A stretch of DNA of 64,000 bases from a virus (IMGVR_UViG_3300031692_000001:358-64357); one strand, 5' to 3'. Shown: positions 4,806-64,000, numbered from the stretch's first letter. Numbers and translations are program-made. The notes: generated by a model from the letters alone, not told the origin.

Positions 4806-4814
4806 TTTTCCTTC

Positions 4815-20515: not shown

Positions 20516-20592
20516 CCACCATCCCCGGAGAGCAATAGCTAAGCTCTCCTATTTTACCCGGCCTCATTCGTTGAGTGGGGCTGAGCGAAATA
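20516..20592 (+). repeat. Repeat module B copy 1 (two hairpins)
   Basis: GGAGAGC-N9-GCTCTCCTATTTTACCCGGCCTCATTCGTTGAGTGGGGCTGAGCGAAATA; inverted copies at 29107-29196 and 29390-29485. Confidence 0.9.
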
Positions 20593-20605
20593 AAGGAGAA
20601 TGAAT

Positions 20606-20776
20606 ATGCAGACAAAAAAGGAAATGAAAGAATACACAAATTTAGGAGTAGAAACAGGCGTGAAAATATCTAATATAGTGTATTGGTTTTTCAATGCTAC
20701 CAGAATTATTGCGGCATTTAAAAAAGCCAAATCATCGGAAACCGACATAGAGCGGGACCGGAGATGTCATAGTTAA
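20606..20776 (+). CDS. 56-aa cassette protein (not in ORF track)
   Basis: AAGGAG RBS; MQTKKEMKEY...SETDIERDRRCHS; bounded by modules B and A. Confidence 0.6.
   Translation: MQTKKEMKEYTNLGVETGVKISNIVYWFFNATRIIAAFKKAKSSETDIERDRRCHS
20731..20765 (+). repeat. Repeat module D copy 1
   Basis: 30-bp CGGAAACCGACATAGAGCGGGACCGGAGAT identical (inverted) to 63464-63493. Confidence 0.9.
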
Positions 20777-20808
20777 TAACACCCAGCACCCAGGGAAAGG
20801 GTAAAGGA
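20776..20808 (+). repeat. Repeat core A copy
   Basis: ACACCCAGCACCCAGGGAAAGGGTAAAGGA directly before ATG at 20811. Confidence 0.85.
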
Positions 20809-27213: not shown

Positions 27214-27264
27214 ATTCGCCTCCTATATCGAATGGCCTATATAGTTCCCCTCCCAGGGTTTTAT

Positions 27265-27731: not shown

Positions 27732-27737
27732 GATTTA

Positions 27738-27810
27738 CTCCTTACCCTTAACCCTGGGCGCCGGGTAGTAAGCCGGGGAATTAAACCCCGGTAAACCGCT
27801 CTGACTATTC
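27738..27810 (-). repeat. Long repeat: tRNA-elbow-like module T plus core A
   Basis: 27738-27802 is identical to 28740-28804 (65 bp); related copies at 61761-61840 and 62759-62844. Confidence 0.95.
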
Positions 27811-28738: not shown

Positions 28739-28810
28739 TCTCCTTACCCTTAACCCTGGGCGCCGGGTAGTAAGCCGGGGAATTAAACCCCGGTAAACCG
28801 CTCTAACTAT
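28738..28810 (-). repeat. Long repeat: module T plus core A
   Basis: 65 bp identical to 27738-27802. Confidence 0.95.
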
Positions 28811-29091: not shown

Positions 29092-29106
29092 AATTTCTCT
29101 CCTTAT

Positions 29107-29206
29107 CTCGCTTAAAGCCCGTCGGCTATATTTCGCTCAGCCTCACACGCTGTATGAGGCCGGGTAAAATAGGAGAGCTTACGTATTGCTCTCCGGGATG
29201 ATGGGT
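29107..29206 (-). repeat. Repeat module B copy 2
   Basis: Direct repeat of 29390-29485 with compensatory changes in hairpin 2. Confidence 0.9.
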
Positions 29207-29207
29207 A

Positions 29208-29378
29208 TTATATTGATTTAATTTTTCGTATAAATGTAATAGTGAGTCTATCAACACCGAAAAAAGTAATATGCTGACAAAACTCATCATTTCCAGGACA
29301 TCCCCACCAATACATTAACTTTGATGTAGTCCAAGATTCGGGAATCAAACCTATAATAAACTCAATTATTGCTCTCAT
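29208..29378 (-). CDS. 56-aa cassette protein, duplicated at 63880 to beyond 64000 (not in ORF track)
   Basis: AAGGAGAG RBS; MRAIIEFIIGLIPESWTTSKLMYWWGCPGNDEFCQHITFFGVDRLTITFIRKIKSI. Confidence 0.75.
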   Translation of the reverse strand: MRAIIEFIIGLIPESWTTSKLMYWWGCPGNDEFCQHITFFGVDRLTITFIRKIKSI

Positions 29379-29389
29379 GCTTCTCTCCT

Positions 29390-29485
29390 TCTCGCTTAAA
29401 GCCCGTCGGCTATATTTCGCTCAGCCCCACTCAACGAATGAGGCCGGGTAAAATAGGAGAGCTTACGTATTGCTCTCCTGGGTGC
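29390..29485 (-). repeat. Repeat module B copy 3
   Basis: GCACCCAGGAGAGCAATACGTAAGCTCTCC...GGGCTTTAAGCGAG. Confidence 0.9.
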
Positions 29486-29691: not shown

Positions 29692-29785
29692 TCCTCCGTA
29701 AAATTAGTATATAAGGTTTTTCTCTTAACCTCTAATACTAATATAAACCTTTTTTATAAAAAAGTAAAGTACTTTTTTAAAAATA
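29692..29785 (-). promoter_or_regulatory. Promoter + stem-loop leader + RBS (module C)
   Basis: AAAAAAGTAC-TTTACT-spacer-TATATT-AGTATTAGAGGTTAAGAGAAAAACCTTATATACTAATTTTACGGAGG. Confidence 0.85.
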
Positions 29786-29786
29786 A

Positions 29787-30008
29787 TTAATTATTTTTTT
29801 GTTCCTCTTCTATTTCCTCTATAAATTCCGGGTCCACTGATATTAAAATAGTTCCATCAACTAATTGAATATCATATCTCTCAGACAATAAATGAGTTGG
29901 GGCATGAATAAAAATAATAGTTCCTTTTTCCAAATGAAAGTATTTTAAATCAGAAGAGTGTATTTTAACTTTAACTTTCATTCCAATTGATATATTTTCC
30001 GGCAACAT
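29787..30008 (-). CDS. Small SH3/KOW-like hypothetical protein
   Basis: IGMKVKVK...GTI...YDIQL pattern; GGAGG RBS. Confidence 0.5.
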   Translation of the reverse strand: MLPENISIGMKVKVKIHSSDLKYFHLEKGTIIFIHAPTHLLSERYDIQLVDGTILISVDPEFIEEIEEEQKNN

Positions 30009-33836: not shown

Positions 33837-33929
33837 TCCTCCGTAAAATTAGTATAAAAGGTTTTCTCTTAACCTCTAATACTAATATACTACCTTTCTT
33901 AATAAAAATAAAGTACTTTTTTAAAATAA
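33837..33929 (-). promoter_or_regulatory. Promoter + stem-loop leader + RBS (module C)
   Basis: Near-identical to 29692-29785. Confidence 0.85.
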
Positions 33930-33940
33930 ATCAATTATTT

Positions 33941-34396
33941 TTATATATCATCTTCTTCTAAAGCTCTGGATATTTGGGGAAAAATAAATTGAATAGCTTC
34001 TAAAACATGCAAAGCACTCGGCGCTCTTTTCTTTTTATCCAATAAATCTAAAAATAGAATACTATATAGTTTCATTTTAGAAGATGTCATTTGATTTTTA
34101 AATTTTTTCATATTAAAAAAATATTCTTCTCCTCTCTCTCCCATTTTACCAATTCTATAAGTAACAGAAGATTTGCAAAGCTCAGATATTTCCTTAATAT
34201 CAATTTCATACTTTTCTAATCCCTGATTTAAAGTCAATATGGGATTATTTTTTAATTCTTTTATTATTTTATCTATCAATTCTATAGATAATTCACACCA
34301 TAATCTTTTCATTTTATTATCCTTTATAATGTTTACACCAAAATTTTCTGTCTGATAATTGCCCTCCATAAGAACAATATCCATTCTCCTCTTCAA
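33941..34396 (-). CDS. Hypothetical protein
   Basis: Open ORF; start uncertain. Confidence 0.5.
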   Translation of the reverse strand: MKRRMDIVLMEGNYQTENFGVNIIKDNKMKRLWCELSIELIDKIIKELKNNPILTLNQGLEKYEIDIKEISELCKSSVTYRIGKMGERGEEYFFNMKKFKNQMTSSKMKLYSILFLDLLDKKKRAPSALHVLEAIQFIFPQISRALEEDDI

Positions 34397-34498: not shown

Positions 34499-35008
34499 TC
34501 ATTCCCCTTTCTCCTCTCTTTTATTAAATAATTTTTGAAATGTTTCCCAATACATCATCACTAAAGGTTGTTTAAACGCCTTTTTATTATGAACTATTAT
34601 CCAATCTGTTTGTGAAATTAAATTATTTTCCACCTGAGCAATAGTCGAACCTATGGAAAAACCTTCTGTATTTTTGCATTCTATTGTAAAAGGAAATCTC
34701 TTCAAAGCCTTTCCCCTCAAAATAACATCAACCCCAGCTTGTCCCATTTCCCTGGAATGAATAAGACATTGATCATCCTGTTGATCATAGGGAAAGTTTA
34801 TCATTTCAGATATCTTTTTACATACCCATTTTTGCAATTCCCTTCCTTTAGCTTTTGCTGATGATGTTTTTATAGGTTTTAAAGCCCTTTTTAATTTTCT
34901 CATTATTTTTTTTCTTAATTCACAATTAGGTTTTATAAAAGGAGGACCAAGAAAAATATTTTGTATATACTCAATCTCCTTTTTTTCTAATATAATGGAC
35001 TTGGACAT
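34499..35008 (-). CDS. Holliday junction resolvase (PD-(D/E)XK)
   Basis: SAKAKGRELQ, GQAGVDV, FTIECKN. Confidence 0.8.
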   Translation of the reverse strand: MSKSIILEKKEIEYIQNIFLGPPFIKPNCELRKKIMRKLKRALKPIKTSSAKAKGRELQKWVCKKISEMINFPYDQQDDQCLIHSREMGQAGVDVILRGKALKRFPFTIECKNTEGFSIGSTIAQVENNLISQTDWIIVHNKKAFKQPLVMMYWETFQKLFNKREEKGE

Positions 35009-35277
35009 AAAACCTCCTTATCAAATCTCTCCGATATCTCCGTAACTCCTACAAAAAAGAAAAAATAAATAACCCCTATTTTAATTAAACCTCTATCCAC
35101 CATAATAGAGAGTTTACTCATAATTAAAATATGATTATTCCCTTCCGCTCTTAATGACAAATATATTTTCCATACTTCATAAATCTCTTCTTTTGTCACC
35201 AATAATGATTCCATTAAAGATGGATTTAATATTTCTTTTTTCGATTCGTTTTTATTTCCTGCTCTATCATTTCCCAT
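34987..35277 (-). CDS. Hypothetical protein
   Basis: ORF between RecA-like gene and resolvase; start uncertain. Confidence 0.4.
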   Translation of the reverse strand: MGNDRAGNKNESKKEILNPSLMESLLVTKEEIYEVWKIYLSLRAEGNNHILIMSKLSIMVDRGLIKIGVIYFFFFVGVTEISERFDKEVLCPSPLY

Positions 35278-36422
35278 TTTTCCCTCACTCTAAGCGTTAA
35301 TTCTTTTTGGAGTCCTTCTGACTCTATATATTCAATAAGTTCATCCCTTGTCCGGGATATCCCAAACTTTTTTACAAATTGATCTTTATAATTTTTTTCA
35401 AACCACTCGGCCTGAACTTGTTTTTTATCATCCCCTTTCAGGGTACTCCTGGAAAACTTATTTTTAAATTCCTCAATTACTCCTATTTCCTCTGCAAACA
35501 ACCTTAAACTTTTTATGGAGATATTTTCACTCCCTCCTTCCCAAACTATACTTTGAGATTTTTTCAATAAGTTTAAATCTTCTCCTCTCAAATCAAATAA
35601 AAAATCAAGATTAGATCCTATATTGTCCAAACCATAATCAAACAAAAGAGAAAAGGAACATTCCCGGAATGGCCTGGGGGTTTTACTTTTTTTTGCATGA
35701 GCCTTAACTATTACTCCAACAGCCCTTCCTTTTTTCTTAATTTTATAATATGAATTCAACCATAAAACTGTATGACAATAAAAATCCATAGCTCTTCCTC
35801 CAGCTCTGGATTGAGCTTTAAACATAGAATCTATTTTATCACGGATTTGAGAAATAATAATTAAAAAACCATTAGACTCTTCAATTAAATCAGCTATGGG
35901 AGGAAAAAATTCTTGGCTTAAAAACTTTGCTTTTCCCATCTGATAACTACCGTCTTTGAAATCTTTCCCTTTTTTAAAAGAATTATGACGATCATCCCCT
36001 CTCTTTTGTAATTCTTTAGAAGTTAATCCATCTAAAGAATCAACCACATAAATTCCGAATTCCCCTGGTTTAAGAGATTCAAAAAACATCCGGCAATTAC
36101 TATAAAGATCCTCTACTGTTTTACTCCGAGTTTGTTTTTTTCTATCCAAAGGAAGTATTTCAAAACCATATAAAGATTGAGTATCAAAAGTAAATCCACT
36201 TTCACAATTATCAAATTTCCATTTTAATTCCTCTTTTAATTTATAACGAGCTGCTGCGAGTATTTCGCAAGCCAAAAAGGTTTTTCCGGAACTTTTATCC
36301 CCTACAATATTTATAATTTTTTGAATTGGATACCCATATCCCTCTCCCCCACCTACAACCAAATCCAATAAATCAGATCCTGAAGATAATCTCATTATTT
36401 CATTTTCCTTTTTTTCTTTCAT
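35226..36422 (-). CDS. RecA/UvsX-like recombinase
   Basis: SSGSDLLDLVVGGG, Walker A GDKSSGKT, YVVDSL, IIISQIRDKI, GGRAMDFY. Confidence 0.9.
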   Translation of the reverse strand: MKEKKENEIMRLSSGSDLLDLVVGGGEGYGYPIQKIINIVGDKSSGKTFLACEILAAARYKLKEELKWKFDNCESGFTFDTQSLYGFEILPLDRKKQTRSKTVEDLYSNCRMFFESLKPGEFGIYVVDSLDGLTSKELQKRGDDRHNSFKKGKDFKDGSYQMGKAKFLSQEFFPPIADLIEESNGFLIIISQIRDKIDSMFKAQSRAGGRAMDFYCHTVLWLNSYYKIKKKGRAVGVIVKAHAKKSKTPRPFRECSFSLLFDYGLDNIGSNLDFLFDLRGEDLNLLKKSQSIVWEGGSENISIKSLRLFAEEIGVIEEFKNKFSRSTLKGDDKKQVQAEWFEKNYKDQFVKKFGISRTRDELIEYIESEGLQKELTLRVREKWEMIEQEIKTNRKKKY

Positions 36423-36780
36423 TATTACTCCCTGTATACTTTTCATAATATTCATCAAACTCTTCTCTCTTAAAGACCACCGCATTTTTGAATTTTCTCC
36501 TTTCAATATTGGAAGAATTTAGAATTCTATAGATTTTAGCTACATGGACATTATATCGGACAGCTGTCTGTTGAACAGTTTCCCATTCTTCCCCTATATT
36601 AGCGCTATTCAACCATTTCAAAAGAAAAGGTTTAAAATACCTCCAATGAACCCCATCCATATCCTTTTCAGCGAATTTGTGAGTCAATCCCGCATATAAA
36701 ATACCCGGCCGGGAAATATCCCGGCCATTTTCTTTACAAAGTTCAATTGCTTCTTTTGTTTTAATCCATTCCATTTCCAT
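36400..36780 (-). CDS. Putative DNA-binding protein (tandem excisionase/MerR-like HTH)
   Basis: Two repeats EWIKTKEA / EWETVQQTA. Confidence 0.5.
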   Translation of the reverse strand: MEMEWIKTKEAIELCKENGRDISRPGILYAGLTHKFAEKDMDGVHWRYFKPFLLKWLNSANIGEEWETVQQTAVRYNVHVAKIYRILNSSNIERRKFKNAVVFKREEFDEYYEKYTGSNNERKKGK

Positions 36781-37792: not shown

Positions 37793-38398
37793 TTATTTCC
37801 CCTCTTTCTTATTTAATTTTTTCCGAGCATCCATAGATGCCTCTGTATTCCCGTCTTTCCTCACTCCTACAGGTAATGAAAAATAATTATTCCCGTAAAG
37901 CTTCACCAAATTATCCAGATCTGCCCGTCTTTGTTGAAATGATTCCACCGCTGCTTCCAAATGATAAATAACTTTTTCCACCTGAACCAATTCATCATTT
38001 ATCTTTACAATAGTTTCATGGGTTGTTAATAAAGCAGTCATGGAACTGATTGTAATTTTTACTCCTTCCGGAGTAATTCCTTTTTCATTGGTTGTAGATA
38101 AAATATCCAATTCTATTTTGGATGAAAAGAATTTTAGTCTATTTTTTAAAATCCCTTTTTCCGTTTTCATGTCAGCTAACTGAGTTGAATAATAATTATA
38201 TAAATTGGGTTGATTTTCACATTCATCATCCAACTTATATTTATTTATTTTCAACTCGGCTTCTATATCTCTATTTGTCTTTTTTACTTTCTTCTTTTCC
38301 TCCTTATTTTCATCTGTCAATTTAAATTTAGATTCAATTGAATTATCTTCCAATTCTTCTTTCCCTTCTTTACTTAATCCTTGATCTTTTGTTTCCAT
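37793..38398 (-). CDS. UvsY-like recombination mediator
   Basis: LKINKYKLDDECENQP..Y helical protein adjacent to SSB and RecA-like genes. Confidence 0.6.
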   Translation of the reverse strand: METKDQGLSKEGKEELEDNSIESKFKLTDENKEEKKKVKKTNRDIEAELKINKYKLDDECENQPNLYNYYSTQLADMKTEKGILKNRLKFFSSKIELDILSTTNEKGITPEGVKITISSMTALLTTHETIVKINDELVQVEKVIYHLEAAVESFQQRRADLDNLVKLYGNNYFSLPVGVRKDGNTEASMDARKKLNKKEGK

Positions 38399-45748: not shown

Positions 45749-47142
45749 CTTTCCACCTCATCATTATACCGGGAATCCAAATATGGACGGCCTATGCTTA
45801 GACATTGAAGAACCAAAGCCTGTCTATAATTCCTCCTGCCATCTCTCTCTGCTAATTGAGCAATCCTACAAGCACTCAATTTTTGATCTTCCAAATCTGA
45901 ATTTATACTTACCATTTTAGAAGTATGAGCAATTTTTCGGATATCTTCCACAATAGTTTCCTCTGTGGCATCCTTCTTTGAGGCTCTTCTCCCAGCTTGA
46001 GATGCTGTTACCATAAGTATGTTTCTTTCTTGAGCAATTCTCCTAAGCTTTTTCCAAATATCATCTATTTGATGCCTGTATTCATTCCAGGATTTTGACG
46101 GGGCAATTATATCAGCATAATCAATAATTACCACATCCGGGATATATTCTTCATAATAATACATATTATCCAAATGGGCTTCAATATCCTCTACTGTAGC
46201 AGAATATGCCAATAATGGAATAATCTTAATTCCCCCGGACCTGAATTGTTTTCTAAAATGTTGCTGTAATTTTTTTATGTTTGGTAAATCAACCCCTTCC
46301 TTTTTTTCCTTTTTAAAAAGAACTTCCCATTTTGATTTTTCATCTTCCTCGTCTATTTTTGAAAAATATGGGATATTCAATTCCATAGATTTTCTAGATT
46401 GAGCTGTTAATGAAATCCATCCCCTTCTTATTATCTGATTTTCAGTCATTTCGAGAGTAAAAAAAACTACCTTAAAACCAAAATACATAGCTAATTGACC
46501 TACATACCATTGCCACCAGGTTTTCCCTCTCTTAGCAAATGCCAAAAATGCCGCCAAATCCCCTCTCATAAATGGGCCAATTATTTCTCCCAATACTCCA
46601 GGGAACGAAAACATATATTCTTCTTCCGATAGAAAAGCAGCGCATATTTTTCTATCATCCTTTAGTATAGATATTCCCTCTGTGGCACTGGATTCTACAC
46701 GGGAAAAATTAGCAATCTCTGATTCGGCTCCTAAAGGATCGGAATCCAGCAAAGCGCTTTCCAATTTATTTTTTAATAAAAATATAGATCGTATTTTCAA
46801 GAAATGAATTGAATTTTTTATCACAAAATCTATATTCTGGATTTTCTTTTGTTTTTCCCAATCCTTTGATAATTGAAGTAAAAACTCTTTTACAATTTCC
46901 ACTTCCTCTTCTTCTCTTATAAATTTACTTTTTCTGTTATAAATATCCTGGATATGTTTTTCAGGAGCTTCTTTAAATTCATTAAAATATTCTATTACCC
47001 ATTCACTCACTAATCTTCCATAAATGGATTCAAAATATTTAGGCTTTACTACTGGAACAATCCTTCTTAAGAAATCGGAGTTTATAATCATATAGGTAAT
47101 GATTTGACGTTCCTGAAATAAATCTATTCTTTTTCTTTTCAT
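45745..47142 (-). CDS. Replicative DnaB-like helicase
   Basis: Walker A AFAKRGKT, FFTLEM, VVIIDYADI, VTASQ. Confidence 0.9.
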   Translation of the reverse strand: MKRKRIDLFQERQIITYMIINSDFLRRIVPVVKPKYFESIYGRLVSEWVIEYFNEFKEAPEKHIQDIYNRKSKFIREEEEVEIVKEFLLQLSKDWEKQKKIQNIDFVIKNSIHFLKIRSIFLLKNKLESALLDSDPLGAESEIANFSRVESSATEGISILKDDRKICAAFLSEEEYMFSFPGVLGEIIGPFMRGDLAAFLAFAKRGKTWWQWYVGQLAMYFGFKVVFFTLEMTENQIIRRGWISLTAQSRKSMELNIPYFSKIDEEDEKSKWEVLFKKEKKEGVDLPNIKKLQQHFRKQFRSGGIKIIPLLAYSATVEDIEAHLDNMYYYEEYIPDVVIIDYADIIAPSKSWNEYRHQIDDIWKKLRRIAQERNILMVTASQAGRRASKKDATEETIVEDIRKIAHTSKMVSINSDLEDQKLSACRIAQLAERDGRRNYRQALVLQCLSIGRPYLDSRYNDEVER

Positions 47143-47846
47143 GATTCCAGTTCCCATATTTCATTATAAGATACTCTTTTTTTTCCTTGTTTCAATAAAT
47201 GTCTTTTAAATCTATCCTCTTGGGCTTGCCAGTAGTCCGGGTCATTTTCACAACCGATGAAATCAAACCCCATATCATAACAGGCTATCCTCGATGATCC
47301 AGATCCAACGTGAGAATCAAATATTTTCCATCCGGGTTGAGCGTAGTTTTGCAATAGCCATTTGTAGAGGGCTATGGGTTTTTGCGTGGGGTGAATTCGT
47401 TTTTCTTTATTTTTCATGTTTTCTTGTAACAAACCATGCCATCTATATTTTAATTTTCTCGTAGCTGTTTCAAAAGAAGTCCATGCAAGTTCACAATCTG
47501 CCTGATCGCTATTTCCGTTGTCTTTGTCCCATACTATGAAACAAGATGTGTTCTTTAAATATTCAAGAAAATAATTTCCACCCCATATTATTTGATTTTT
47601 TGAAATTCTAAAGAGTTCGTCAAAGTACTTTTTATCTGGTATTTTTGAGTCATCAAAATTAGACATATAATATTGTTTTTCTATTATTGTTTTTTTGCTA
47701 CCACTAAAATTGGTTTTTAATTCTCCCGTTATACCACCTCCCATTCCAATACCATACGGAGGATCAACCGGTGCCAAATCAAAAAACTTATCCGGTAGCG
47801 TCGACATATACTCCATATTGTCAACATAGTATACTTCACTCACCAT
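47139..47846 (-). CDS. DNA N6-adenine / N4-cytosine methyltransferase (beta class)
   Basis: DPPY, QIIWGGNYF, HPTQKP, FDSHVGSGS. Confidence 0.9.
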   Translation of the reverse strand: MVSEVYYVDNMEYMSTLPDKFFDLAPVDPPYGIGMGGGITGELKTNFSGSKKTIIEKQYYMSNFDDSKIPDKKYFDELFRISKNQIIWGGNYFLEYLKNTSCFIVWDKDNGNSDQADCELAWTSFETATRKLKYRWHGLLQENMKNKEKRIHPTQKPIALYKWLLQNYAQPGWKIFDSHVGSGSSRIACYDMGFDFIGCENDPDYWQAQEDRFKRHLLKQGKKRVSYNEIWELES

Positions 47847-47864: not shown

Positions 47865-48536
47865 TCATGATTCCAGTTCCCATATTTCATTATAAGATAC
47901 TCTTTCCCTACCCTGTTTTATCAAATGTCTTTGAAATCTATCCTCTTGAAAATCAAAAGGAATTTTTTCTATTTCACAACCTACAAAATCAAACCCCAAA
48001 TCCCAACAAGCTATTCTCAAAGACCCAGATCCTACTCCAGGATCAAAAATAATTTGTCCCGGTTTTGCATCTAATTTTAAAAGCCAATAATATAATGCTA
48101 CTGGTTTTTGACAACTATGTAATATCTTTTCCCCACGTTCAGAATCCTTAAAAGCTCCACACCATTGATGAGAAAAAATTCTCATAGCTCCTTTTTTAAA
48201 AGAAGTCCAAGCCATTTCCCCATCAGCAAAATAATTTCTTCCGGTTTTTTTATGCCAAATTCGGGGAGCAACGCATTTTCCCAAATAATCCAGAAAATAA
48301 TTACCTCCCCAAATAATTACCTCTTTACATACTCTTTGAACCTCTTTAAAATAATACGGTCCAGGAGGATTATCATTTTCTGGAATCCAACTATTAAATC
48401 TTTTTTTTGCAAAACCAGTTAACTGTTGATTCATTCTTAACCCATACCATGGGTCACAAATTCCTAACCCATATGTGTTATCTCTACAACCCTTCATATG
48501 AATCATGCAATCAATAAAATAAGTTTCACTTATCAT
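47865..48536 (-). CDS. Second DNA methyltransferase paralog (DPWY variant)
   Basis: DPWY, IIWGGNYF, HSCQKP, FDPGVGSGS; same C-terminus RVSYNEIWELES. Confidence 0.85.
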   Translation of the reverse strand: MISETYFIDCMIHMKGCRDNTYGLGICDPWYGLRMNQQLTGFAKKRFNSWIPENDNPPGPYYFKEVQRVCKEVIIWGGNYFLDYLGKCVAPRIWHKKTGRNYFADGEMAWTSFKKGAMRIFSHQWCGAFKDSERGEKILHSCQKPVALYYWLLKLDAKPGQIIFDPGVGSGSLRIACWDLGFDFVGCEIEKIPFDFQEDRFQRHLIKQGRERVSYNEIWELES

Positions 48537-53640: not shown

Positions 53641-53727
53641 TCCTCCGTAAAAAGTTTATAAGGTTTTTCTCTTAACCTCTAATACTAAGTTACTACTTTT
53701 TTATATAAAAGTAAAGTACTTTTTTAT
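53641..53727 (-). promoter_or_regulatory. Promoter + leader + RBS (module C)
   Basis: AAAAAAGTACTTTACTTTT...TAGTATTAGAGGTTAAGAGAAAAACCTT...TTTTACGGAGG. Confidence 0.85.
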
Positions 53728-54335
53728 TTATTTTCCATTTCTTTTACCATTGAAACCAGCCCTTCTTTCTTTACGATAAAAACCTTATCTGAAACATCTT
53801 CCATTTCCTGATTATGAGTCACCATAATTATTTGAAGCTCCAATTTCTCACTTAATTTCTTCAAAATTTCCCCGGCTGAATGATGTAAATTCCGAGATAG
53901 AAACCGGAATGGCTCATCCAATATTATAACTCTATCAGTTTTCCCCAAACTCCAAACCGCAATCCGTAAAGCAAAAGCAGCCAAGTCCACAACTCCTCCC
54001 CCAGATGCATCAACAGGATCCACAGGAATTCCATTTTTCATAAAAACTAAAGACGCTTCTGTTTGTCCTCTTTTAATTTCAAAATTAACCTGAAAAACAT
54101 ATTCTCCAGGAAAACAAGAGTCTATTGCCAATTGAACAATATCCTCTATATGAAATTTTAAATTCTGCTGAGTATCCTTTGCTACTCTTTGAATAAATAC
54201 TTGAGCTATTTCATAATCAACCTTAAATTGTTCCAATTTATTTTTTAATGCTTTTTTAAAATCTAATTGGGACAAAATAGATTTTCTAATTCCTATAGAT
54301 TGCTCCAATTTTTTAGAATATTCTTTAATTTCCAT
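53724..54335 (-). CDS. SbcC/Rad50-like ATPase, C-terminal half
   Basis: ABC signature SGG, Walker B ILDEP, IMVTH. Confidence 0.85.
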   Translation of the reverse strand: MEIKEYSKKLEQSIGIRKSILSQLDFKKALKNKLEQFKVDYEIAQVFIQRVAKDTQQNLKFHIEDIVQLAIDSCFPGEYVFQVNFEIKRGQTEASLVFMKNGIPVDPVDASGGGVVDLAAFALRIAVWSLGKTDRVIILDEPFRFLSRNLHHSAGEILKKLSEKLELQIIMVTHNQEMEDVSDKVFIVKKEGLVSMVKEMENK

Positions 54336-58734: not shown

Positions 58735-60041
58735 TTTCCAGACTCCCTTTTATGATATTCTAAAGCTTTTTGTAAACTTCTATCACTAATATCTAAAATA
58801 ATATTATACTTTTCTCTCATATAAATTATAAATTTCTTCCAAGTAGCGTTATTCAATCCGAAATTCCCAATATTCCAAGTTTCCCAGGTATCAATAAACT
58901 CTTTATATTTATCCAAAAACTTTTTAATATTCCCACAAACTCCATTCCAATCCCCAGATTCATAAATATGATATATATTATAACCTTCTTTTATTTTCTC
59001 ATACCAATTTTCAATTTCAATAGCTTTTTTCCAAAATAAATTTAAATTAGTCCATTCTTTTTTTAACATTTTTCGAGAAATAAAAAGATCCATAGTCTCT
59101 TCTGAAAAATCTATTTCTTCCACATCTTTATCTTCTTCTTTCTTAAAACGATAATTTATACTTTTAGGGTGATTAAATAAACAGTATAGAAACCATGATT
59201 TTTTTGTCCTTGGATTATACAACCAATCCTCTATACTCTTTGTCATTTTAGATTTATCATATGGCCAATTCCCCTCTTTCCTCATCTTCCCAAACCGGGT
59301 GGCTGCTTTGACTAAACAGGATTCTAATTTTCCCGTAAGAATATCCCCATTTAACTCAGTTAAGTTTATTTTGTTCTTAGATAACCATTCATGGTCCAAT
59401 ACATATTCCCTCTCTATAAACCCGGATTGTAAACACTCTATGAACTGAACGGATTTGAGGACCGTGGCTGATGGTAGTTTGGTCCCGATCGGGAGGAGGG
59501 TTGAAAAGTTTCCCTTTTCCTTTACTATACTTAATATTTTTTTTATAGAGATACTTATATTTTTAATAGATGAGGAATTTTCCTTTTCTTTTGAAAAGGC
59601 TTCTTCTTTATCTTCTTTATAATTACTATTTTCTAATAAAAGAATATCTTCTAATGGTTTAGTTTTTTCGATAACGGTTTTACCGTTAAAGGTTTTACCG
59701 GGAACGGTTTTTACAGACATTTCTATAACATTATCAGGAGTAAAAACAAGTTTTTTACCTTTAAATTTTCCTTTTTCCTTTTCCTCTATTATTTCAATCA
59801 TCTGTAATTTTTCTAATATTTTTAATCCTGATGGAATCCATTCTTTAGATAATCCGGAATATGTGGAAATGGAATTTGTATAATATTTAATGTCTTTTCC
59901 ATTAAAATCACTATCCATTTCTGATATAGTGAGATATAAATTCCTTAATTTGGATAATTCTAATTTTTTGAAGTTTCTTCTTAATAGTCTTAAAATTTTT
60001 TTTTCTTGCCAACAAAAAGGTTGTTTTCTAATACTTCTCAT
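58731..60041 (-). CDS. Replication initiator (wHTH) with internal iteron-like repeats
   Basis: LYLTISE...ISTYSGLS..WI..GLK.LE...I HTH; 15-bp periodic repeats at 59655-59717. Confidence 0.65.
   Translation of the reverse strand: MRSIRKQPFCWQEKKILRLLRRNFKKLELSKLRNLYLTISEMDSDFNGKDIKYYTNSISTYSGLSKEWIPSGLKILEKLQMIEIIEEKEKGKFKGKKLVFTPDNVIEMSVKTVPGKTFNGKTVIEKTKPLEDILLLENSNYKEDKEEAFSKEKENSSSIKNISISIKKILSIVKEKGNFSTLLPIGTKLPSATVLKSVQFIECLQSGFIEREYVLDHEWLSKNKINLTELNGDILTGKLESCLVKAATRFGKMRKEGNWPYDKSKMTKSIEDWLYNPRTKKSWFLYCLFNHPKSINYRFKKEEDKDVEEIDFSEETMDLFISRKMLKKEWTNLNLFWKKAIEIENWYEKIKEGYNIYHIYESGDWNGVCGNIKKFLDKYKEFIDTWETWNIGNFGLNNATWKKFIIYMREKYNIILDISDRSLQKALEYHKRESGK
59655..59717 (-). repeat. Iteron-like 15-bp repeats (putative origin)
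   Basis: AAAACCGTTCCCGGT AAAACCTTTAACGGT AAAACCGTTATCGAA AAAACT followed by an A/T-rich tract. Confidence 0.55.
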
Positions 60042-60419
60042 TTATATTATTCCTTTCTTTACATATAATTTATTTCCAATAATAACAGCATTTATTTTAA
60101 TTTTCTTATTTTGAGTTTTATTTTTTATCTTGGTTATATATTTATAATTAGAGTCGTCTATTGTTTGGTTATACTTTGGGGTATATTTAAATATATATTT
60201 AGCTTCTTCTTCATTTAATAAGTTTTGATCTTCTATTGATAAAAAAGTATAAGAATCAAATATTTTTTTACCCTCTGAAACATGAAAATTTATCCTGGAC
60301 ATCATATTTACACTTTTACCTACATAAACAACTACATCTTTATATAATAAAAAATAAATTCCAGAAACCATTTTTTTACTAATTTTTTTTGACTGTTCTC
60401 TTATTTTTTCTATTTCCAT
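60042..60419 (-). CDS. GIY-YIG domain protein
   Basis: SGIYFL....VVYVGKS.N...RI..H, E...I....PKYN. Confidence 0.8.
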   Translation of the reverse strand: MEIEKIREQSKKISKKMVSGIYFLLYKDVVVYVGKSVNMMSRINFHVSEGKKIFDSYTFLSIEDQNLLNEEEAKYIFKYTPKYNQTIDDSNYKYITKIKNKTQNKKIKINAVIIGNKLYVKKGII

Positions 60420-60431
60420 AAAAACCCCAAT

Positions 60432-60590
60432 AAAAAAGGATATTTACTGGCACACCCGGAAAGGTTCAAGATTAGGCAAGGTTAATCTTTTGCACCAGTA
60501 AATATCCTAAGATATCCTTGCCAAGGATTGTAGTGATTGTTTCCGCAATCAGACAATTAAACTATATACTACTCTCCTTTAAAAGTAAAG
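60432..60590 (-). promoter_or_regulatory. Promoter and highly structured leader of the replication operon
   Basis: TTTACT-N17-TATAGT; 18-bp stem AGGAUAUUUACUGGUGCA / UGUGCCAGUAAAUAUCCU followed by U-run. Confidence 0.6.
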
Positions 60591-60600
60591 GAAAAAATAA

Positions 60601-60637
60601 AAAAATAAAAGCCAGGAGCTGAGAATAACTCTCGGCA
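60601..60637 (-). terminator. Terminator of the early transcript
   Basis: GCCGAGAGTT-ATTCTC-AGCTCCTGGC followed by TTTTATTTTTT. Confidence 0.65.
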
Positions 60638-60683
60638 AAATAAGGATTGAAATTCCAGTTTTAGAAAAGATCTGGAAACTCTT

Positions 60684-61058
60684 TTATATTTCTTCTTTTT
60701 CTACCCAATCCGGGTGATAAGACTCTGTATTATTTGAAATATATTTTCCACATCCTTTCCACATAAAAATCAGAAAAGGAGGAAAAATTTCATGATAATA
60801 ATTTCCTTCAGAATCTGAATCATACCCAGACTTTTTTAAAATTTTTTTTATGTCTTTTTCAGATTTTAACTTCCATCTGTACTCAGGGGGTTTTATATTT
60901 CCTTGCCCAATTTGCGAATATAAAAAGTCTTTTAACATATCGCATATTTCTCCTTCTTTTTTATATTCGCAATAAAAACCATCTGGGCCTATATAAGGAC
61001 TTTTTTCACACCCCTCACAAAAATAAAATACTGCTTGTTGTTTGGTTATTGGTTCCAT
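60684..61058 (-). CDS. Hypothetical protein
   Basis: AAGGAG RBS; Cys-rich N-terminus. Confidence 0.55.
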   Translation of the reverse strand: MEPITKQQAVFYFCEGCEKSPYIGPDGFYCEYKKEGEICDMLKDFLYSQIGQGNIKPPEYRWKLKSEKDIKKILKKSGYDSDSEGNYYHEIFPPFLIFMWKGCGKYISNNTESYHPDWVEKEEI

Positions 61059-61086
61059 AATATTTTCCTTTCTCCTTTAAAATAAT

Positions 61087-61728
61087 TTATTTAATATCTT
61101 TAAAAATACTTTTTGCAGCCCATATGCCATTAGATGTATTTTTTCTTTGCCAAGTTCCTAAACTTGGAGTCCACCAGAAGGCATGTTGTTTCAATTTATT
61201 CCTCATATCCTCATCTGGTTTTTCATCAAAAAATATTTGGACTCTTTCCAGGGCTGTATTATTAACAATTTTTATTCCTGGTTTTTGATCAATGATATGA
61301 ATAGAAAAATCACCGCTTTCAACCCGGTCCTGAATAATTTCTTTTTTCTTTATCCTATTTATTCTCTTCCTTATTTCTCCGATAATAGAATAATTACAGA
61401 GAAGTTCAAGGGCTTTATGCTCTGAATCTAATTTTTTTTGATTGCTTCTTACTGGAAAATTAGCAGATCCGGTAATCATAGTAGACATACACCTTGACTT
61501 TTTATTTAACCATTCAATATATATCTTATGATAATAGTCGAAGCATCCCTGGATTATTTCTTTATTTTCTTCATTGTATAATCCCGCATCTTTCACTGCC
61601 TGGATACTGTTATTACAATCTAATTGATAAGATTCGATAATTGAACCAGCTCTTTTTTCAGGATCAAAACTTGTCCCTATATGTGCCTGTCTTGCGGTTT
61701 CATACAGTATTTCTTTTATGTTTATCAT
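61087..61728 (-). CDS. Conserved mobile-element early protein (polyvalent-protein-type domains)
   Basis: TSFDPEKRA, SRCMSTMITG.ANFP, RVQIFFDEKPD...R..LK...F.W.PS...WQR motifs. Confidence 0.6.
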   Translation of the reverse strand: MINIKEILYETARQAHIGTSFDPEKRAGSIIESYQLDCNNSIQAVKDAGLYNEENKEIIQGCFDYYHKIYIEWLNKKSRCMSTMITGSANFPVRSNQKKLDSEHKALELLCNYSIIGEIRKRINRIKKKEIIQDRVESGDFSIHIIDQKPGIKIVNNTALERVQIFFDEKPDEDMRNKLKQHAFWWTPSLGTWQRKNTSNGIWAAKSIFKDIK

Positions 61729-61804
61729 ATTCTTTTTCTCTCCTCCGGTCATTCTATTTTCCCTTAACCCTGGGCGCTAGGTAGTAATACAACCAGCCGG
61801 GGAA

Positions 61805-61963
61805 TTAAACCCCAGTGGACCGTGCTGACTCTTCTGATTCTTCGTCTTCGTCGAGATGCACAGTATCATACTGCTCTTCATAGCAATAGTTGCATAGAAT
61901 TCCATAGTCATCACCACGGAATTTTGCATCGCCTTTTTCTCCCCCACATGTTTCACATATCAT
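61805..61963 (-). CDS. 52-aa Zn-finger cassette protein (not in ORF track)
   Basis: MICETCGG...LCNYCYEE; stop codon lies inside module T. Confidence 0.7.
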   Translation of the reverse strand: MICETCGGEKGDAKFRGDDYGILCNYCYEEQYDTVHLDEDEESEESARSTGV

Positions 61964-62008
61964 TACTTATTCTCCTTACCCTTAACCCTGGGCGCTGGGT
62001 ATTATGTT

Positions 62009-62293
62009 TTAATGGCCATAGCCTTTTTCTCCAAATTCAGGTCTTAAATTAATTATAGCATTTTTACATCTGAATAATTTCTTATCGTCGTGGAAATAGT
62101 GCAATTTTCCACTTCTTATGTTAACACAATTATAAACTTGACTTTTCTTTTTCCCCAAGGGAATTTCTACGGTTTCAATTTTCATGAAAGTTTCCACGGA
62201 TGTCTTGAAATCTTCAATTTCAAATATTTCGCAAATATTTAATTCCCCAAAATAATCACAAACTGTATACCAGAATTCATTTATAATTTTCAT
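62009..62293 (-). CDS. Hypothetical cassette protein
   Basis: Bounded by core A on both sides. Confidence 0.65.
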   Translation of the reverse strand: MKIINEFWYTVCDYFGELNICEIFEIEDFKTSVETFMKIETVEIPLGKKKSQVYNCVNIRSGKLHYFHDDKKLFRCKNAIINLRPEFGEKGYGH

Positions 62294-62313
62294 GCTTTAT
62301 CTCTCCTCTACCC

Positions 62314-62493
62314 TTAACCCTGGGTGCCGGGTGTTATTTTATTTGCACATTTAGGGCATAAATCTTTATTTTTTTTTCTTATCCAGCCTTTTTTCTTTGC
62401 GTTTTTTATTGTTTCAATCATATTATGTCCTGTCATGTCTTCTGTCCATTCTGAACAATTATCGCACCATATTGTATATGTTTTATTTATCAT
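62314..62493 (-). CDS. 59-aa Zn-finger cassette protein (not in ORF track)
   Basis: WCDNC...KKGW...DLCPKC; ends TPGTQG using the repeat's TAA. Confidence 0.75.
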   Translation of the reverse strand: MINKTYTIWCDNCSEWTEDMTGHNMIETIKNAKKKGWIRKKNKDLCPKCANKITPGTQG

Positions 62494-62516
62494 TTCAGCC
62501 TTTACTCTCCTTGCCC

Positions 62517-62753
62517 TTAACCCTGGGTGGTGGGTGTTTCTTCATCACGAAAAGCATATAATACACCCTGTAAAAATCCAAGAATAAATAAAAAATCATC
62601 ACTTTGCATGATATGTGTTTGCCCGCAAAAAATATCATAATTAGGTCCGGAATTTACTTTTTCAACATAAAAGTATTTTCCGGTTTCTCTCCCTATCGTA
62701 ATACAAATATTTTCTGCTCGAACTAAAAATTGCTCTTTTGTTAGTTCTCTCAT
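62517..62753 (-). CDS. 78-aa cassette protein
   Basis: Start MRELTK after core-A RBS; ends EETPTTQG using the repeat's TAA. Confidence 0.7.
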   Translation of the reverse strand: MRELTKEQFLVRAENICITIGRETGKYFYVEKVNSGPNYDIFCGQTHIMQSDDFLFILGFLQGVLYAFRDEETPTTQG

Positions 62754-62832
62754 ACTCACTCTCCTTACCCTTAACCCTGGGCGCTGGGTAATACAGCCAG
62801 CCGGGGAATTAAACCCCGGCGAACCGCTCTGA

Positions 62833-63030
62833 CTATTCTGATTCTCCCTCTCCTTCTGATTCTCGTATTTCCTGCATTTTTTCGTATTCAAATAATACAA
62901 TATTTTTCCTACACATATCTAAAGCTTCTTTTTTATCTTTCCCATCTCCGGTAATTCCTGATGAAATATGAGTACATTGAATGAAATTGGGGTATGGGAA
63001 ATTATTGATCGATTTATATTTGTATTTCAT
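62833..63030 (-). CDS. 65-aa cassette protein
   Basis: RBS from core A; stop at start of module T. Confidence 0.65.
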   Translation of the reverse strand: MKYKYKSINNFPYPNFIQCTHISSGITGDGKDKKEALDMCRKNIVLFEYEKMQEIRESEGEGESE

Positions 63031-63229
63031 GCTTTATCTCTCCTCTCCTCTGCCCTTGACCCTGGGTGGTGGGTGTTTCTTCCCTATCTATATTGAGATA
63101 GATCTCAAATTTTGAATCGTTTCCGCAATCATCACAACCTATAATTGCAATATCAGATAATCTTACGGACCCAGTTTTAAGTAATCGTTTAATTTCTTTT
63201 TCTGTTATATCTAAGTTATAAGCTTCCAT
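63014..63229 (-). CDS. 71-aa cassette protein reading through core A
   Basis: The repeat TAA is CAA in this copy, so the ORF extends through it. Confidence 0.65.
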   Translation of the reverse strand: MEAYNLDITEKEIKRLLKTGSVRLSDIAIIGCDDCGNDSKFEIYLNIDREETPTTQGQGQRRGEIKHEIQI

Positions 63230-63279
63230 GCTTCACTCTCCTCTACCCTACCCTGGGCGCTGGGTAATATCTTATTATA

Positions 63280-63435
63280 TTAAAAACTATTAGGACCGTA
63301 TTCCAATATATAATTAACTCCCTTTTCCTTGAACAGTTCTATTTCTTCGTACATTTCTTCACATGGTTCACATATTTTTTTATCATTTCCCATAGGAGCT
63401 ACTTCTCCACATTCTTCACATTTAGCATATTTCAT
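63280..63435 (-). CDS. 51-aa Zn-finger cassette protein (not in ORF track)
   Basis: AAGGAGAG RBS; CEEC...ICEPC. Confidence 0.7.
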   Translation of the reverse strand: MKYAKCEECGEVAPMGNDKKICEPCEEMYEEIELFKEKGVNYILEYGPNSF

Positions 63436-63455
63436 GATTCTCTCCTTACAAATTA

Positions 63456-63590
63456 TTATGAAAATCTCCGGTCCCGCTCTATGTCGGTTTCCGGCGACTG
63501 TTTTTCTTGTTTTGGAATATATACGAAAAATAGAAAATACAATCTATTATCACTTTCTATTTTTTCAAGTTCGGTCATTCTTGTCTTCAT
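63456..63590 (-). CDS. 44-aa cassette protein (not in ORF track)
   Basis: RBS from core A; ends ETDIERDRRFS, encoded by module D. Confidence 0.6.
   Translation of the reverse strand: MKTRMTELEKIESDNRLYFLFFVYIPKQEKQSPETDIERDRRFS
63464..63498 (-). repeat. Repeat module D copy 2
   Basis: 30 bp identical (inverted) to 20736-20765. Confidence 0.9.
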
Positions 63591-63626
63591 AGCTCTCTCC
63601 TTACCCTTAAACCTGGGTGGTGGGTT

Positions 63627-63842
63627 TCATTTTTGTTCCATAGGAATGGAAATTTTATCTATTTTATAAACTGCTCCTGGAAGAGAAAGACATAAAGATG
63701 TTCTACCTTTTGCCATATCAGGAATAAATTCTTTTTCTAAATATTCATAGACATCTTCTTCAGAGGTTCCACGAGTAGTAAAACAAAACTCTTTTTCTTT
63801 ACCTTTATATGTTCTTATAATGTATACTCTATAATTCTTCAT
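63627..63842 (-). CDS. 71-aa cassette protein
   Basis: Bounded by core A on both sides. Confidence 0.65.
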   Translation of the reverse strand: MKNYRVYIIRTYKGKEKEFCFTTRGTSEEDVYEYLEKEFIPDMAKGRTSLCLSLPGAVYKIDKISIPMEQK

Positions 63843-63879
63843 AATCTCTCCTTTCCTTTAAACCTGGGTGGTGTGGGTA

Positions 63880-64000
63880 TTATATTGATTTAATTTTTCG
63901 TATAAATGTAATAGTGAGTCTATCAACACCGAAAAAAGTAATATGCTGACAAAACTCATCATTTCCAGGACATCCCCACCAATACATTAACTTTGATGTA
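63880..64000 (-). CDS. 3' part of duplicated 56-aa cassette gene (truncated by window edge)
   Basis: 63874-64000 is identical to 29202-29328. Confidence 0.8.
   Translation of the reverse strand, partial: TSKLMYWWGCPGNDEFCQHITFFGVDRLTITFIRKIKSI

Follow-up and report, generated by a model that had tools for sequence, protein, structure and literature searches.

In T4-type phages, promoter-early stem-loop (PeSL) cassettes are described as a sigma-70-like promoter combined with a terminator stem-loop (Arbiol et al. 2010, PMC2839356; Comeau et al. 2014, PMC4122927), and conservation extends over about 100 bp in the account given in PMC2839356. In Cluster K mycobacteriophages, the start-associated sequence (SAS) and its extended form (ESAS) are described with the 13-bp consensus 5'-GGGATAGGAGCCC (Pope et al. 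2011, PMC3203893). The subject of the present analysis is a short GC-rich motif that stands between the small genes of an array at positions 61761-64000 of a viral DNA stretch of 64,000 nucleotides (IMGVR_UViG_3300031692_000001:358-64357; this whole stretch is referred to as the window). The array had been likened to an integron in an earlier note on this DNA. Integron arrays are built from attC sites, which are folded recombination sites, together with the IntI integrase. The motif is read here as a lineage-specific composite stop/ribosome-binding-site junction that doubles as a short homology patch, and a probability of roughly 65% is assigned to this reading.

The motif was searched for using the pattern ACCC-N5-CCCAGGGTTAAGGG, built from the consensus in the earlier note, with up to 3 mismatches and an expectation taken from 100 shuffles. 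Nine matches were obtained, all on the - strand, against 0.01 expected. Looser scans added a diverged copy at 63855, an indel variant at 63246, and a + strand copy at 20789. The cores of the nine copies in 61761-64000 start at 61761, 61979, 62311, 62514, 62768, 63053, 63246, 63604, and 63855, with spacings of 218, 332, 203, 254, 285, 193, 358, and 251 bp. Together with the copies at 27745, 28747, and 20789 (+), the window holds 12. The copies were grouped as families D1 and D2 in a repeat-family search. Each interval contains one or two open reading frames (ORFs) of 44-94 aa, each with a strong Shine-Dalgarno (SD) sequence and an ATG. The nine local and 12 total copies, the spacing of about 195-360 bp (measured here as 193-358 bp), and the one or two ORFs of 44-94 aa per interval had all been given in the earlier note and are confirmed. 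The orientation of the motif is that of the gene behind it in 12 of 12 window copies, the lone + strand one among them. The coordinates of all features are collected in Table 1.

The anatomy of the motif was obtained by aligning 46 distinct instances, drawn from both the window and its relatives. The consensus reads ACCC, a variable RNYR, CCCAGGG, T-T/C-A/G-A, GGG, T/C, AAGGAG, 5-11 nt, and ATG. Five columns are invariant and 15 more are conserved in at least 90% of the instances. The ATG is found 5-11 nt past GGAG in 41 of the 46, as expected from the proposal that the core supplies the ribosome-binding site; the other five are parse failures in which the ATG lies slightly further on. The upstream ORF stops at the motif's own stop codon in 16 instances (15 TAA and 1 TGA), and such ORFs read through the 5' half of the motif in one frame, with tails such as TPTTQG. 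The upstream stop lies just 5' of the motif in 8 of the 46. Since the 5' half is the end of the upstream gene and the 3' half is the translation start of the downstream gene, the motif is a true junction.

Other roles for the motif in expression were considered. A promoter scan returned 23 promoter-like sites, against 15.5 +/- 4.3 in shuffles, with none inside the conserved core; a single site, at 63906-63879, abuts a motif copy. A terminator scan placed none of its four terminator-like sites on the gene (-) strand. A promoter or terminator reading of the motif is not supported by these scans, with no hexamers in the core and no gene-strand terminator. G-quadruplex and i-motif readings were set aside because there are too few runs. 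The promoter of a single-subunit phage RNA polymerase was also set aside, the largest ORF (834 aa) being the DNA polymerase.

The exact 21-mer formed by the core and the SD sequence gave no hits in prokaryotes when one genome was searched for each of 185,579 species. The motif was detected in only 5 IMG/VR and 11 metagenome stretches, which together with contig L006 make up 12 distinct contigs. Genes in these relatives were called by a simple SD-based caller and clustered by BLASTP; the gene calls are crude. In the cassette maps below, F denotes a gene family, m the motif, and t a hairpin element described later. Gene order and content differ in nearly every one of the twelve metagenome contigs. 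The window reads F23-t-m-F2-m-F24-m-F4-m-F6-t-m-F25, L012 reads m-F6-t-m-F2-m-F17, L002 reads m-F6-t-m-F4-F17, and L018 reads F9-m-F11-m-F4-m-F17. The same two blocks are found in opposite order in L010 (F21-m-F5-F9) and L014 (F5-F9-m-F21). The neighbor of the 52-aa gene (F6) differs in each of the window, L002, and L012. Contig L006 is 93-97% identical to the window over 11 kb, yet lacks exactly the F6 plus t cassette.

Cassettes also differ in the array in which they are found. Contigs L009 and L015 are collinear with the window at 30.7-25.8 kb but carry F10 and F2, which are located at 63.6 and 62.5 kb in the window. The amino acid identities of F10 to the window copy are 94% (L009) and 51% (L015), and those of F2 are 87% and 90%. 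Contig L012 mixes genes from window positions 19.8, 27.8, 28.5, 61.8, 62.5, and 62.8 kb at 91-96% amino acid identity. Motif-flanked cassettes without a window counterpart include F5, F8, F9, F15, and F17-F21. Several arrangements recur in separate contigs: F2-m-F3 in L001 and L010, F2-m-F24 in the window and L015, and F11-m-F4 in L018 and a contig of run X4. With the motif as query in viral and metagenome sequence, then, cassettes are seen to be lost, replaced by others, reordered, and carried from one array to another. In contig L007, a more remote relative that matches the 221-aa protein at 29% identity, no analogous repeat was seen over its 20 kb.

The positions of the crossovers were examined by three-way alignment. 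At the L006 junction, the sequence matches the left flank in the window as far as the motif and the right flank from there on, with a common core of 17 nt. Eight more three-way alignments were made, and a switch of parent was observed in seven: F11-m-F4, F4-m-F17, F6-t-m-F2, F24-m-F3, F9-m-F21, F21-m-F1, and F10-m-F1. In these seven the left flank is 0.92-1.00 identical to one parent, and the block identical in all three sequences measures 6-29 nt. The right flank follows the other parent where the spacing permits an ungapped comparison, and the seven junctions are clear. In the eighth alignment (L014, F8-m-F5) neither flank was matched and the block was 4 nt. By alignment, the crossovers are placed inside an identical core of 9-29 nt. 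The crossover points vary within the motif and reach into the segment from SD to ATG. Two families can also be connected by way of a second, unrelated leader, with which the motif has only the SD-to-ATG stretch in common. The variable crossover points and the second-leader joins fit short-homology recombination and not a site-specific cut.

The second junction leader is about 50 nt long and runs from AAAACCCTGGGAGGGGAAC to AGGAGGCAAAT-ATG. It is present at 27240-27260 of the window (- strand) and in L001, L009, L010, L014, and L015. In different phages it precedes F2 and F3, which follow the main motif elsewhere, and it contains the core 9-mer in inverted form.

Gene adjacency was compared for all contig pairs that share a family, so that the comparisons are not independent. 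When the motif follows the gene in both contigs, the neighbor is the same in 2 comparisons and different in 32; when the motif is present in one contig, it is the same in 4 and different in 20; when the motif is present in neither, it is the same in 28 and different in 45. Different-to-same counts of 52/6 with the motif and 45/28 without it give p = 2.7e-4 in a Fisher test applied to these non-independent comparisons. Families followed by the motif have 26 distinct neighbors in 29 occurrences, and the others have 21 in 41. BLAST segment ends fall within -15..+30 of the core in 201 of 532 cases, against 5.7% for random positions. The motif is present at 48 of 150 gene starts in the vicinity, so the main message of this figure is that breaks coincide with gene boundaries.

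Logan contigs from four runs were mapped onto 60000-64000, and nine joints are listed. Eleven of the 18 joint ends fall in motif-to-ATG intervals, which make up 11% of this stretch. Three joints skip from motif to motif (62299>63053, 62307>62538, and 62773>63059). Three joints are weak, with a short side of 22-29 letters. The joint 60041>60551 is unrelated to the motif and repeats a difference seen in L006. One joint alone goes back (63265>62558, run X3); a relative has a permuted order that matches it, and no excised circle need be assumed. Six of the nine motif copies are traversed by Logan contigs. The earlier note had held that fixed gene order and content in close relatives, or breakpoints outside the repeats, would leave a purely regulatory start-associated motif; order and content are not kept in the relatives, and junctions lie in the repeat.

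The genome encodes recombination proteins of its own. In addition to the UvsX-like, UvsY-like, and RusA-like proteins listed in Table 1, SSB-like, SbcCD-like, and exonuclease-like proteins are encoded. The complete genome contains no match to the tyrosine recombinase family PF00589 and none to the serine recombinase family PF00239; control searches for the two families succeeded in 14 of 14 and 12 of 14 reference genomes, respectively. The absence of an integrase reported for the window thus extends to the whole complete genome, where the suggested search for a recombinase identified neither a tyrosine nor a serine enzyme.

In the proposed mechanism, the motif would be an mRNA-sense junction of polycistronic early operons, and about one-third of the copies hold the last six codons of the upstream gene and its TAA. 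The order from 5' to 3' is the upstream stop (in some copies), the GC box (ACCC, four variable positions, CCCAGGG, TTAA, and GGG), the SD sequence TAAGGAG, 5-11 nt, and the ATG. The motif is strictly sense-oriented, is fused with the SD sequence, and is used as a stop codon, all of which suggests a function at the level of translation or of the mRNA. The selected role is most likely expression, with a uniform stop-and-restart translation start being provided whatever the neighboring gene. As the sole sequence common to otherwise unrelated cassettes, the motif would then offer a homology patch of 9-29 nt (up to 71 nt with t), at which the UvsX-, UvsY-, SSB-, RusA-, and SbcCD-like proteins of the phage, or those of the host, may cross over. 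The outcome would be deletion, insertion, replacement, or permutation of cassettes and their transfer among the three arrays of the genome. The exchange pattern itself is visible in the relatives; the enzyme and the causal role of the homology are what we infer. The earlier proposal of a recombination site or homology seed is thus retained in so far as junctions of relatives lie in the repeat and a UvsX, a UvsY, and a resolvase are present. The integron-like, site-specific logic is not sustained, given the lack of PF00589 and PF00239, the neighbor swaps at motif-less boundaries, and the different leaders found with one and the same family.

A number of observations weigh against a stop/ribosome-binding-site junction that also acts as a homology patch. 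The translational role of the motif is proposed from its position only. Families F2, F3, and F10 have the GC box in some phages and a different leader in others; since they occur with or without it, the box is a property of the junction and not of the gene. A homology of 9-29 nt is short for recombination of the UvsX/RecA type. For T4 the figure is about 50 bp. There is also a gap in length to the conserved part of PeSL cassettes. Neighbors differ in 45 of the 73 motif-less comparisons, a count inflated by crude gene calls. Nearly every array boundary carries the motif, and the 11 of 18 Logan ends are close to the share of boundaries with a motif; joints in the motif therefore barely separate the mechanism from the survival of boundaries. 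Two of the three indels between the window and L006 lie away from the motif. One of the differences concerns window positions 60042-60551, where 509 bp with a 125-aa ORF are replaced by about 136 bp in L006 and are skipped in a contig of run X2. Neither end of this segment carries a motif, so gene replacement also occurs without the repeat. Finally, all relatives are short-read metagenome contigs, in which chimeric joins at repeats are possible for any single contig, and only some of the arrangements are seen in more than one of them.

Element t is a hairpin of about 45 nt that resembles a transfer RNA (tRNA) minihelix and is located directly 5' of four window motif copies. A 6-bp outer stem is stacked on a 6-bp stem that is closed by a T-loop-like loop of 7 nt. 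In L018 the loop sequence, TTCGATT, is that of a textbook T-loop; the window has a degenerate form, TTTAATT. Among 12 copies of t, both partners have changed in one pair, and one pair occurs in three forms. The element is also found in L002, L010, L012 (3 copies), L016, L017, and L018. No tRNA or transfer-messenger RNA was called in the window by ARAGORN, so t is not a called tRNA. The best Rfam match near the motif is that of DUF3800-VI on t, with E = 0.53 and 21 bits against a gathering score of 35. Element t could be a processing signal.

In sister array B (27.7-28.8 kb), a 1002-bp unit is flanked by 71-nt direct repeats that are 99% identical, consist of t and the motif, and form family D6. 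The unit contains a Zn-ribbon gene, a STIV_B116/DUF1874 (AcrIII-1 family) gene, and a membrane protein gene. The Zn-ribbon and B116-like parts are called as one ORF of 171-182 aa in L012 and L017. Direct repeats would be found around a unit in this way if a circular cassette had entered through a single crossover. The 56-aa gene of family F22 is duplicated 34.7 kb apart, at 29202-29378 and at 63874-64000 (continuing past the window end), with 176 of 177 identities. The identity begins exactly at the ATG, with no common leader, and ends after the first six bases of the motif. A separate GC-rich repeat of about 95 nt is present at 29106-29200, 29390-29484, and 20523-20635 of the window, where it follows stop codons and ends in an SD sequence. 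The two copies near 29 kb are 92% identical, and a related copy occurs in L001.

If illegitimate recombination fell anywhere and selection kept only those joints at intact gene boundaries, the motif would be nothing but a start-associated signal and a passenger in the exchanges. The strict tie of its position and orientation to start codons is in keeping with this account, as are the swaps at motif-less boundaries (45/73), the two of three indels away from the motif in the near-identical L006, and the F22 duplicate with its start at the ATG without a shared leader and its end six bases into the motif. The account is nevertheless judged unlikely. Boundaries with the motif are broken more often (52/58 against 45/73), motif-followed families show the wider range of neighbors (26 in 29 occurrences against 21 in 41), and 71-nt direct repeats flank a unit. 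Moreover, the crossovers resolve to an identical core with clean parental flanks, where random breakage would leave scars or variable junctions. The shuffling could also have been created during assembly, had short-read assemblers misjoined co-occurring strains or arrays at the repeats. All relatives are indeed metagenome contigs, contigs in the probable source run end at three motif copies, and L012 combines genes of three window arrays. This explanation is very improbable in view of the many motif-flanked cassettes that are wholly absent from the window, the recurrence of several arrangements in separate contigs (the F11-m-F4 joint is found again in run X4), and the Logan contigs that run through 6 of the 9 copies. 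In L009, F10 is joined to its upstream neighbor through non-repeat sequence; the corresponding stretch upstream of F10 in L015 is a GC-rich element that also occurs in the window and is not clearly unique. A dedicated recombinase of phage or host that excises and inserts cassettes as circles at the motif, as in an integron, would account for an array of promoterless small cassettes behind one promoter and for the direct repeats around a unit. The complete genome lacks PF00589 and PF00239 with positive controls, the crossover points vary in the motif and extend to the SD-to-ATG segment, exchanges also occur without the motif, and the only joint that goes back (63265>62558, X3) matches the permuted order of a relative. 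Such a system is regarded as extremely unlikely.

The remaining explanations concern what the motif does as DNA or RNA. Stoperators of Cluster A mycobacteriophages are asymmetric and orientation-dependent. An operator of this kind, at which a phage regulator blocks elongating RNA polymerase and shuts off the early arrays, would suit an asymmetric repeat in short intergenic spaces with one orientation relative to transcription, and the ACCC-N8-GGGT arms could seat a dimer; stoperators are the contrasting case named in the SAS account of PMC3203893. It is very improbable here, as the motif is fused with the SD sequence at a fixed spacing, its TAA is also in use as a stop codon, a screen of about 65 ORFs (many of them without an assigned function) revealed no repressor-like gene, and the phage lacks an integrase and looks lytic. 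Folding of the GC box 5' of the SD sequence, as a pseudoknot or a nested hairpin that controls translation or mRNA stability of the early cassettes jointly, is doubtful, if somewhat less so than the passenger account. It is compatible with the preferred junction reading, as it concerns only the selection on the GC box and would leave recombination as a by-product. A pseudoknot model of 7 pairs gives 95% pairable cells in the 46 instances, and the nested model preferred by ViennaRNA (first C run with second G run) gives 87%. Wherever the first C run varies (5 cells), the substitution is C to U, which preserves pairing as G-U, and does so solely on the sense strand. The orientation of the motif is strictly sense, and an action in translation initiation is proposed for SAS in PMC3203893. 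On the other side, covariation does not exceed that of shuffles in either model. No pair changes on both sides in the pseudoknot, whose observed values are attained by 484-500 of 500 shuffled controls; one pair does so in the nested model, which is matched by 270 of 500 shuffles. The statement that changes in the two arms are often matched is thus not confirmed, with no pair changed on both sides among the 46 instances and shuffled controls scoring alike. The folding energies of eight motif-only stretches are -2.6 to -11.4 kcal/mol (z = -0.41 to +1.59), and three stretches with t give z = -1.04, -1.13, and -2.17. Rfam 15 returned no match at the gathering score in the 64-kb window, and at E <= 10 only chance-level matches in 61-64 kb, none of which covers the motif. 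Several natural variants break a G run without compensation, and the SD sequence is unsequestered in every predicted fold. Of the H-type pseudoknot put forward in the earlier note, the capacity to pair remains; compensatory change, an energy better than that of shuffles, and an Rfam family were not found. A multi-part RNA "standard connector" made of the t hairpin, a GC-box mini-pseudoknot, and a tandem SD sequence is an improbable elaboration. In such a connector, t would be cut by enzymes of the RNase P/Z type to free each cistron, and the mini-pseudoknot would cap or protect the new 5' end or dock a phage regulator. Were it real, each cassette would be autonomous with an expression independent of context, the accessory and anti-defence set would be plug-and-play by recombination with the connector copied in three arrays, and the connector would be a natural counterpart of the insulator parts of synthetic biology.

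The proteins of the cassettes were compared with family databases. No Pfam family was detected at E <= 0.01 for the 10 proteins of 61.1-63.8 kb, and PHROGs provided a function for only one of the same 10, the 221-aa protein with a primase-like C-terminal match. The 59-aa Zn-ribbon-like protein has one PHROG match, whose function is annotated as unknown. Protein Atlas look-ups for the 94-aa and 78-aa proteins gave scores of 0.84-0.87, which are leads only. The ratio of nonsynonymous to synonymous polymorphism (pN/pS) was calculated without correction and for equal-length pairs only. Values of 0.10-0.36 were obtained for 9 of 11 computable families, including the 94-, 78-, 71- (F10), and 52-aa genes of the window; the low values indicate that the cassettes look like real genes. 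Higher values were obtained for F13 (0.46), F3 (0.56), and F1 (1.07), and that of F23 is undefined. The AcrIII-1-family gene is located in sister array B at about 28 kb, outside 61.7-64 kb. Its family, PF08960, is described as the AcrIII-1 ring nuclease in 10.1101/778746, and a later preprint (10.1101/2023.01.10.523387) questions that role in native systems. The suggestion of an exchangeable anti-defence library is plausible by the family match of this one gene in array B but is mostly unsupported, the proteins of the main array having no Pfam match at E <= 0.01.

The genome is that of an uncultured salt-marsh phage and is complete and circular, at 64.3 kb (64,357 bp) with a 74-nt terminal overlap. 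It is classed in IMG/VR by direct terminal repeats, with a CheckV completeness of 100%. The phage is tailed and myovirus-like and encodes a tape measure protein, a baseplate wedge, a portal, a terminase, and a head protease, together with a DNA polymerase, helicases, a primase, a clamp, and a clamp loader for replication. An integrase is absent, and the phage looks lytic. Among 50,697 deposited phage records, none has a portal more than 34.3% identical to the one encoded here, the best matches being phages of 31-44 kb, and megablast of window positions 55-64 kb against deposited phages gave no match; the lineage is uncultured. Separately assembled DNA contigs from salt-marsh metagenomes contain parts of the genome, and the sequencing runs listed for it include no RNA run. 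Nearly all genes are on the - strand, including those of 61-64 kb. The 283 bases upstream of the array lie outside the window and contain a terminator-like hairpin followed by a TTTACT-17-TATATT site, ahead of the first gene. The array is thus taken as the first, presumably early, operon, with the motif copies inside a polycistronic unit. The TTTACT-17-TATATT site is part of a promoter-like repeat of about 95 nt with four copies in the genome, which probably marks early promoters at the head of each array or operon.

Some further features of the genome were recorded. Contig L006 lacks 630 bp beside the 53.7-kb copy of the promoter-like repeat. A + strand gene inside the head module (window 19838-20512) encodes 224 aa with a UPF0150/HicB-like C-terminal domain (E = 9e-7), and L012 has a 103-aa ORF with 95% amino acid identity to this region. 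Two adjacent paralogous DNA methyltransferase genes, at 47139-47846 and 47865-48536, share stretches that are 71-87% identical. A stretch of 238 nt plus 88 nt is duplicated between two genes of the tail/baseplate region (1351-1816 and 4813-5272).

Table 1. Coordinates of the motif copies and other features, numbered from the first nucleotide of the window.
Feature	Position	Strand	Remarks
Motif copy 1	61753..61791	-	before 221/213-aa gene; SD part decayed, working SD further downstream; family D1
Motif copy 2	61971..62009	-	before 52-aa Zn-ribbon-like gene (F6)
Motif copy 3	62303..62341	-	before 94-aa gene (F4); TAA is stop codon of upstream 59-aa gene
Motif copy 4	62506..62544	-	before 59-aa gene (F24); TAA is stop codon of upstream 78-aa gene
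Motif copy 5	62760..62798	-	before 78-aa gene (F2); tRNA-like hairpin t in front
Motif copy 6	63025..63077	-	SD-to-ATG segment included; before 65-aa gene (F23); family D2
Motif copy 7	63236..63274	-	before 71-aa gene (F11); variant without two bases between G runs
Motif copy 8	63596..63634	-	before 44-aa gene (F0); GGT for GGG
Motif copy 9	63847..63885	-	before 71-aa gene (F10); most diverged
Motif copy, array B	27737..27775	-	t upstream; right-hand member of 71-nt direct repeat
Motif copy, array B	28739..28777	-	t upstream; left-hand member of 71-nt direct repeat
Sole + strand motif copy	20778..20808	+	before + strand small gene
Element t	62792..62836	-	directly 5' of motif copy 5; weak Rfam match, DUF3800-VI
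Element t	61790..61830	-	directly 5' of motif copy 1; overlaps end of 52-aa gene; family D8
Element t, array B	27766-27808 and 28768-28810	-	5' of motif copies
Nine small cassette genes	61805..63842	-	all ORFans
Cassette genes, first part	63627-63842 (71 aa), 63456-63590 (44), 63280-63435 (51), 63014-63229 (71), 62833-63030 (65)	-	
Cassette genes, second part	62517-62753 (78 aa), 62314-62493 (59), 62009-62293 (94), 61805-61963 (52)	-	
First array gene, 3' part (F22, 56 aa)	63880..64000	-	continues past window end
First larger gene after array	61087..61752	-	221 aa as longest ORF, 213 aa from SD-backed ATG; primase-like C-terminal region (PHROGs)
STIV_B116-like/DUF1874 (AcrIII-1 family) gene, 122 aa	28176..28544	-	PF08960, E=4.1e-21, 75.4 bits, cut-off 26
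UvsX-like recombinase	35226..36506	-	phrog_97, E=1.1e-37
UvsY-like recombination mediator	37793..38398	-	phrog_231, E=1.2e-6, weak match
RusA-like Holliday-junction resolvase	34499..35008	-	phrog_244, E=3.4e-10
Promoter-like repeat copies (~95 nt)	29706-29798, 33850-33942, 53653-53745, genome bases 130-230 outside window		site, A-tract, and conserved leader hairpin

The array provides a natural example in which a short translation-start junction, and not a promoter-terminator cassette, marks the exchange points of small early genes, which are traded even between arrays that lie far apart in one genome. The turnover of accessory genes bears on the spread of counter-defence genes, one cassette here being of the AcrIII-1 family. 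One 21-mer suffices to fish the cassette pools of this lineage from metagenomes.

The resemblance to integrons is one of layout. In both, small cassettes without promoters of their own are lined up in one orientation downstream of a shared promoter, and the content varies from relative to relative. Here, however, there is no integrase, the repeat is a translation start region, and the crossover points vary within it. With no integrase in the genome, the motif system is not an integron. As regards attC, the only inverted arms of the motif are 4 nt long (ACCC/GGGT) and show no covariation. With SAS, as characterized in PMC3203893, the motif shares a short asymmetric conserved sequence in one orientation, an SD core a few bases before the start, an association with non-structural genes only, a strong preference for ATG, absence from host genomes, an occasional extension by an upstream paired element, and a presumed translational function. 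The consensus is unrelated to GGGATAGGAGCCC apart from GGAG, and the motif also supplies stop codons and marks the points of cassette exchange, whereas a role as a recombination junction is not part of the SAS account considered here. With PeSL cassettes, as described in the reports cited above, it shares repeated intergenic expression signals upstream of small ORFans in plastic regions; indels, replacements, and permutations between close relatives that are bounded by the repeats; and homologous recombination between repeats as the model, including the insertion of circles, with a UvsX-type system in the phage. It differs in its length of about 30-40 nt, in having a stop codon, a GC box, and an SD sequence instead of promoter hexamers and a terminator, and in its position inside a polycistronic unit; the phage is not T4-type (64.3 kb, with a portal at most 34.3% identical to deposited phages), and the motif is known from assembled contigs alone. 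A shuffling device has been reported before in other phages, and the motif represents a variant of it: it works like PeSL, looks like a start-associated sequence, and is a member of neither family.

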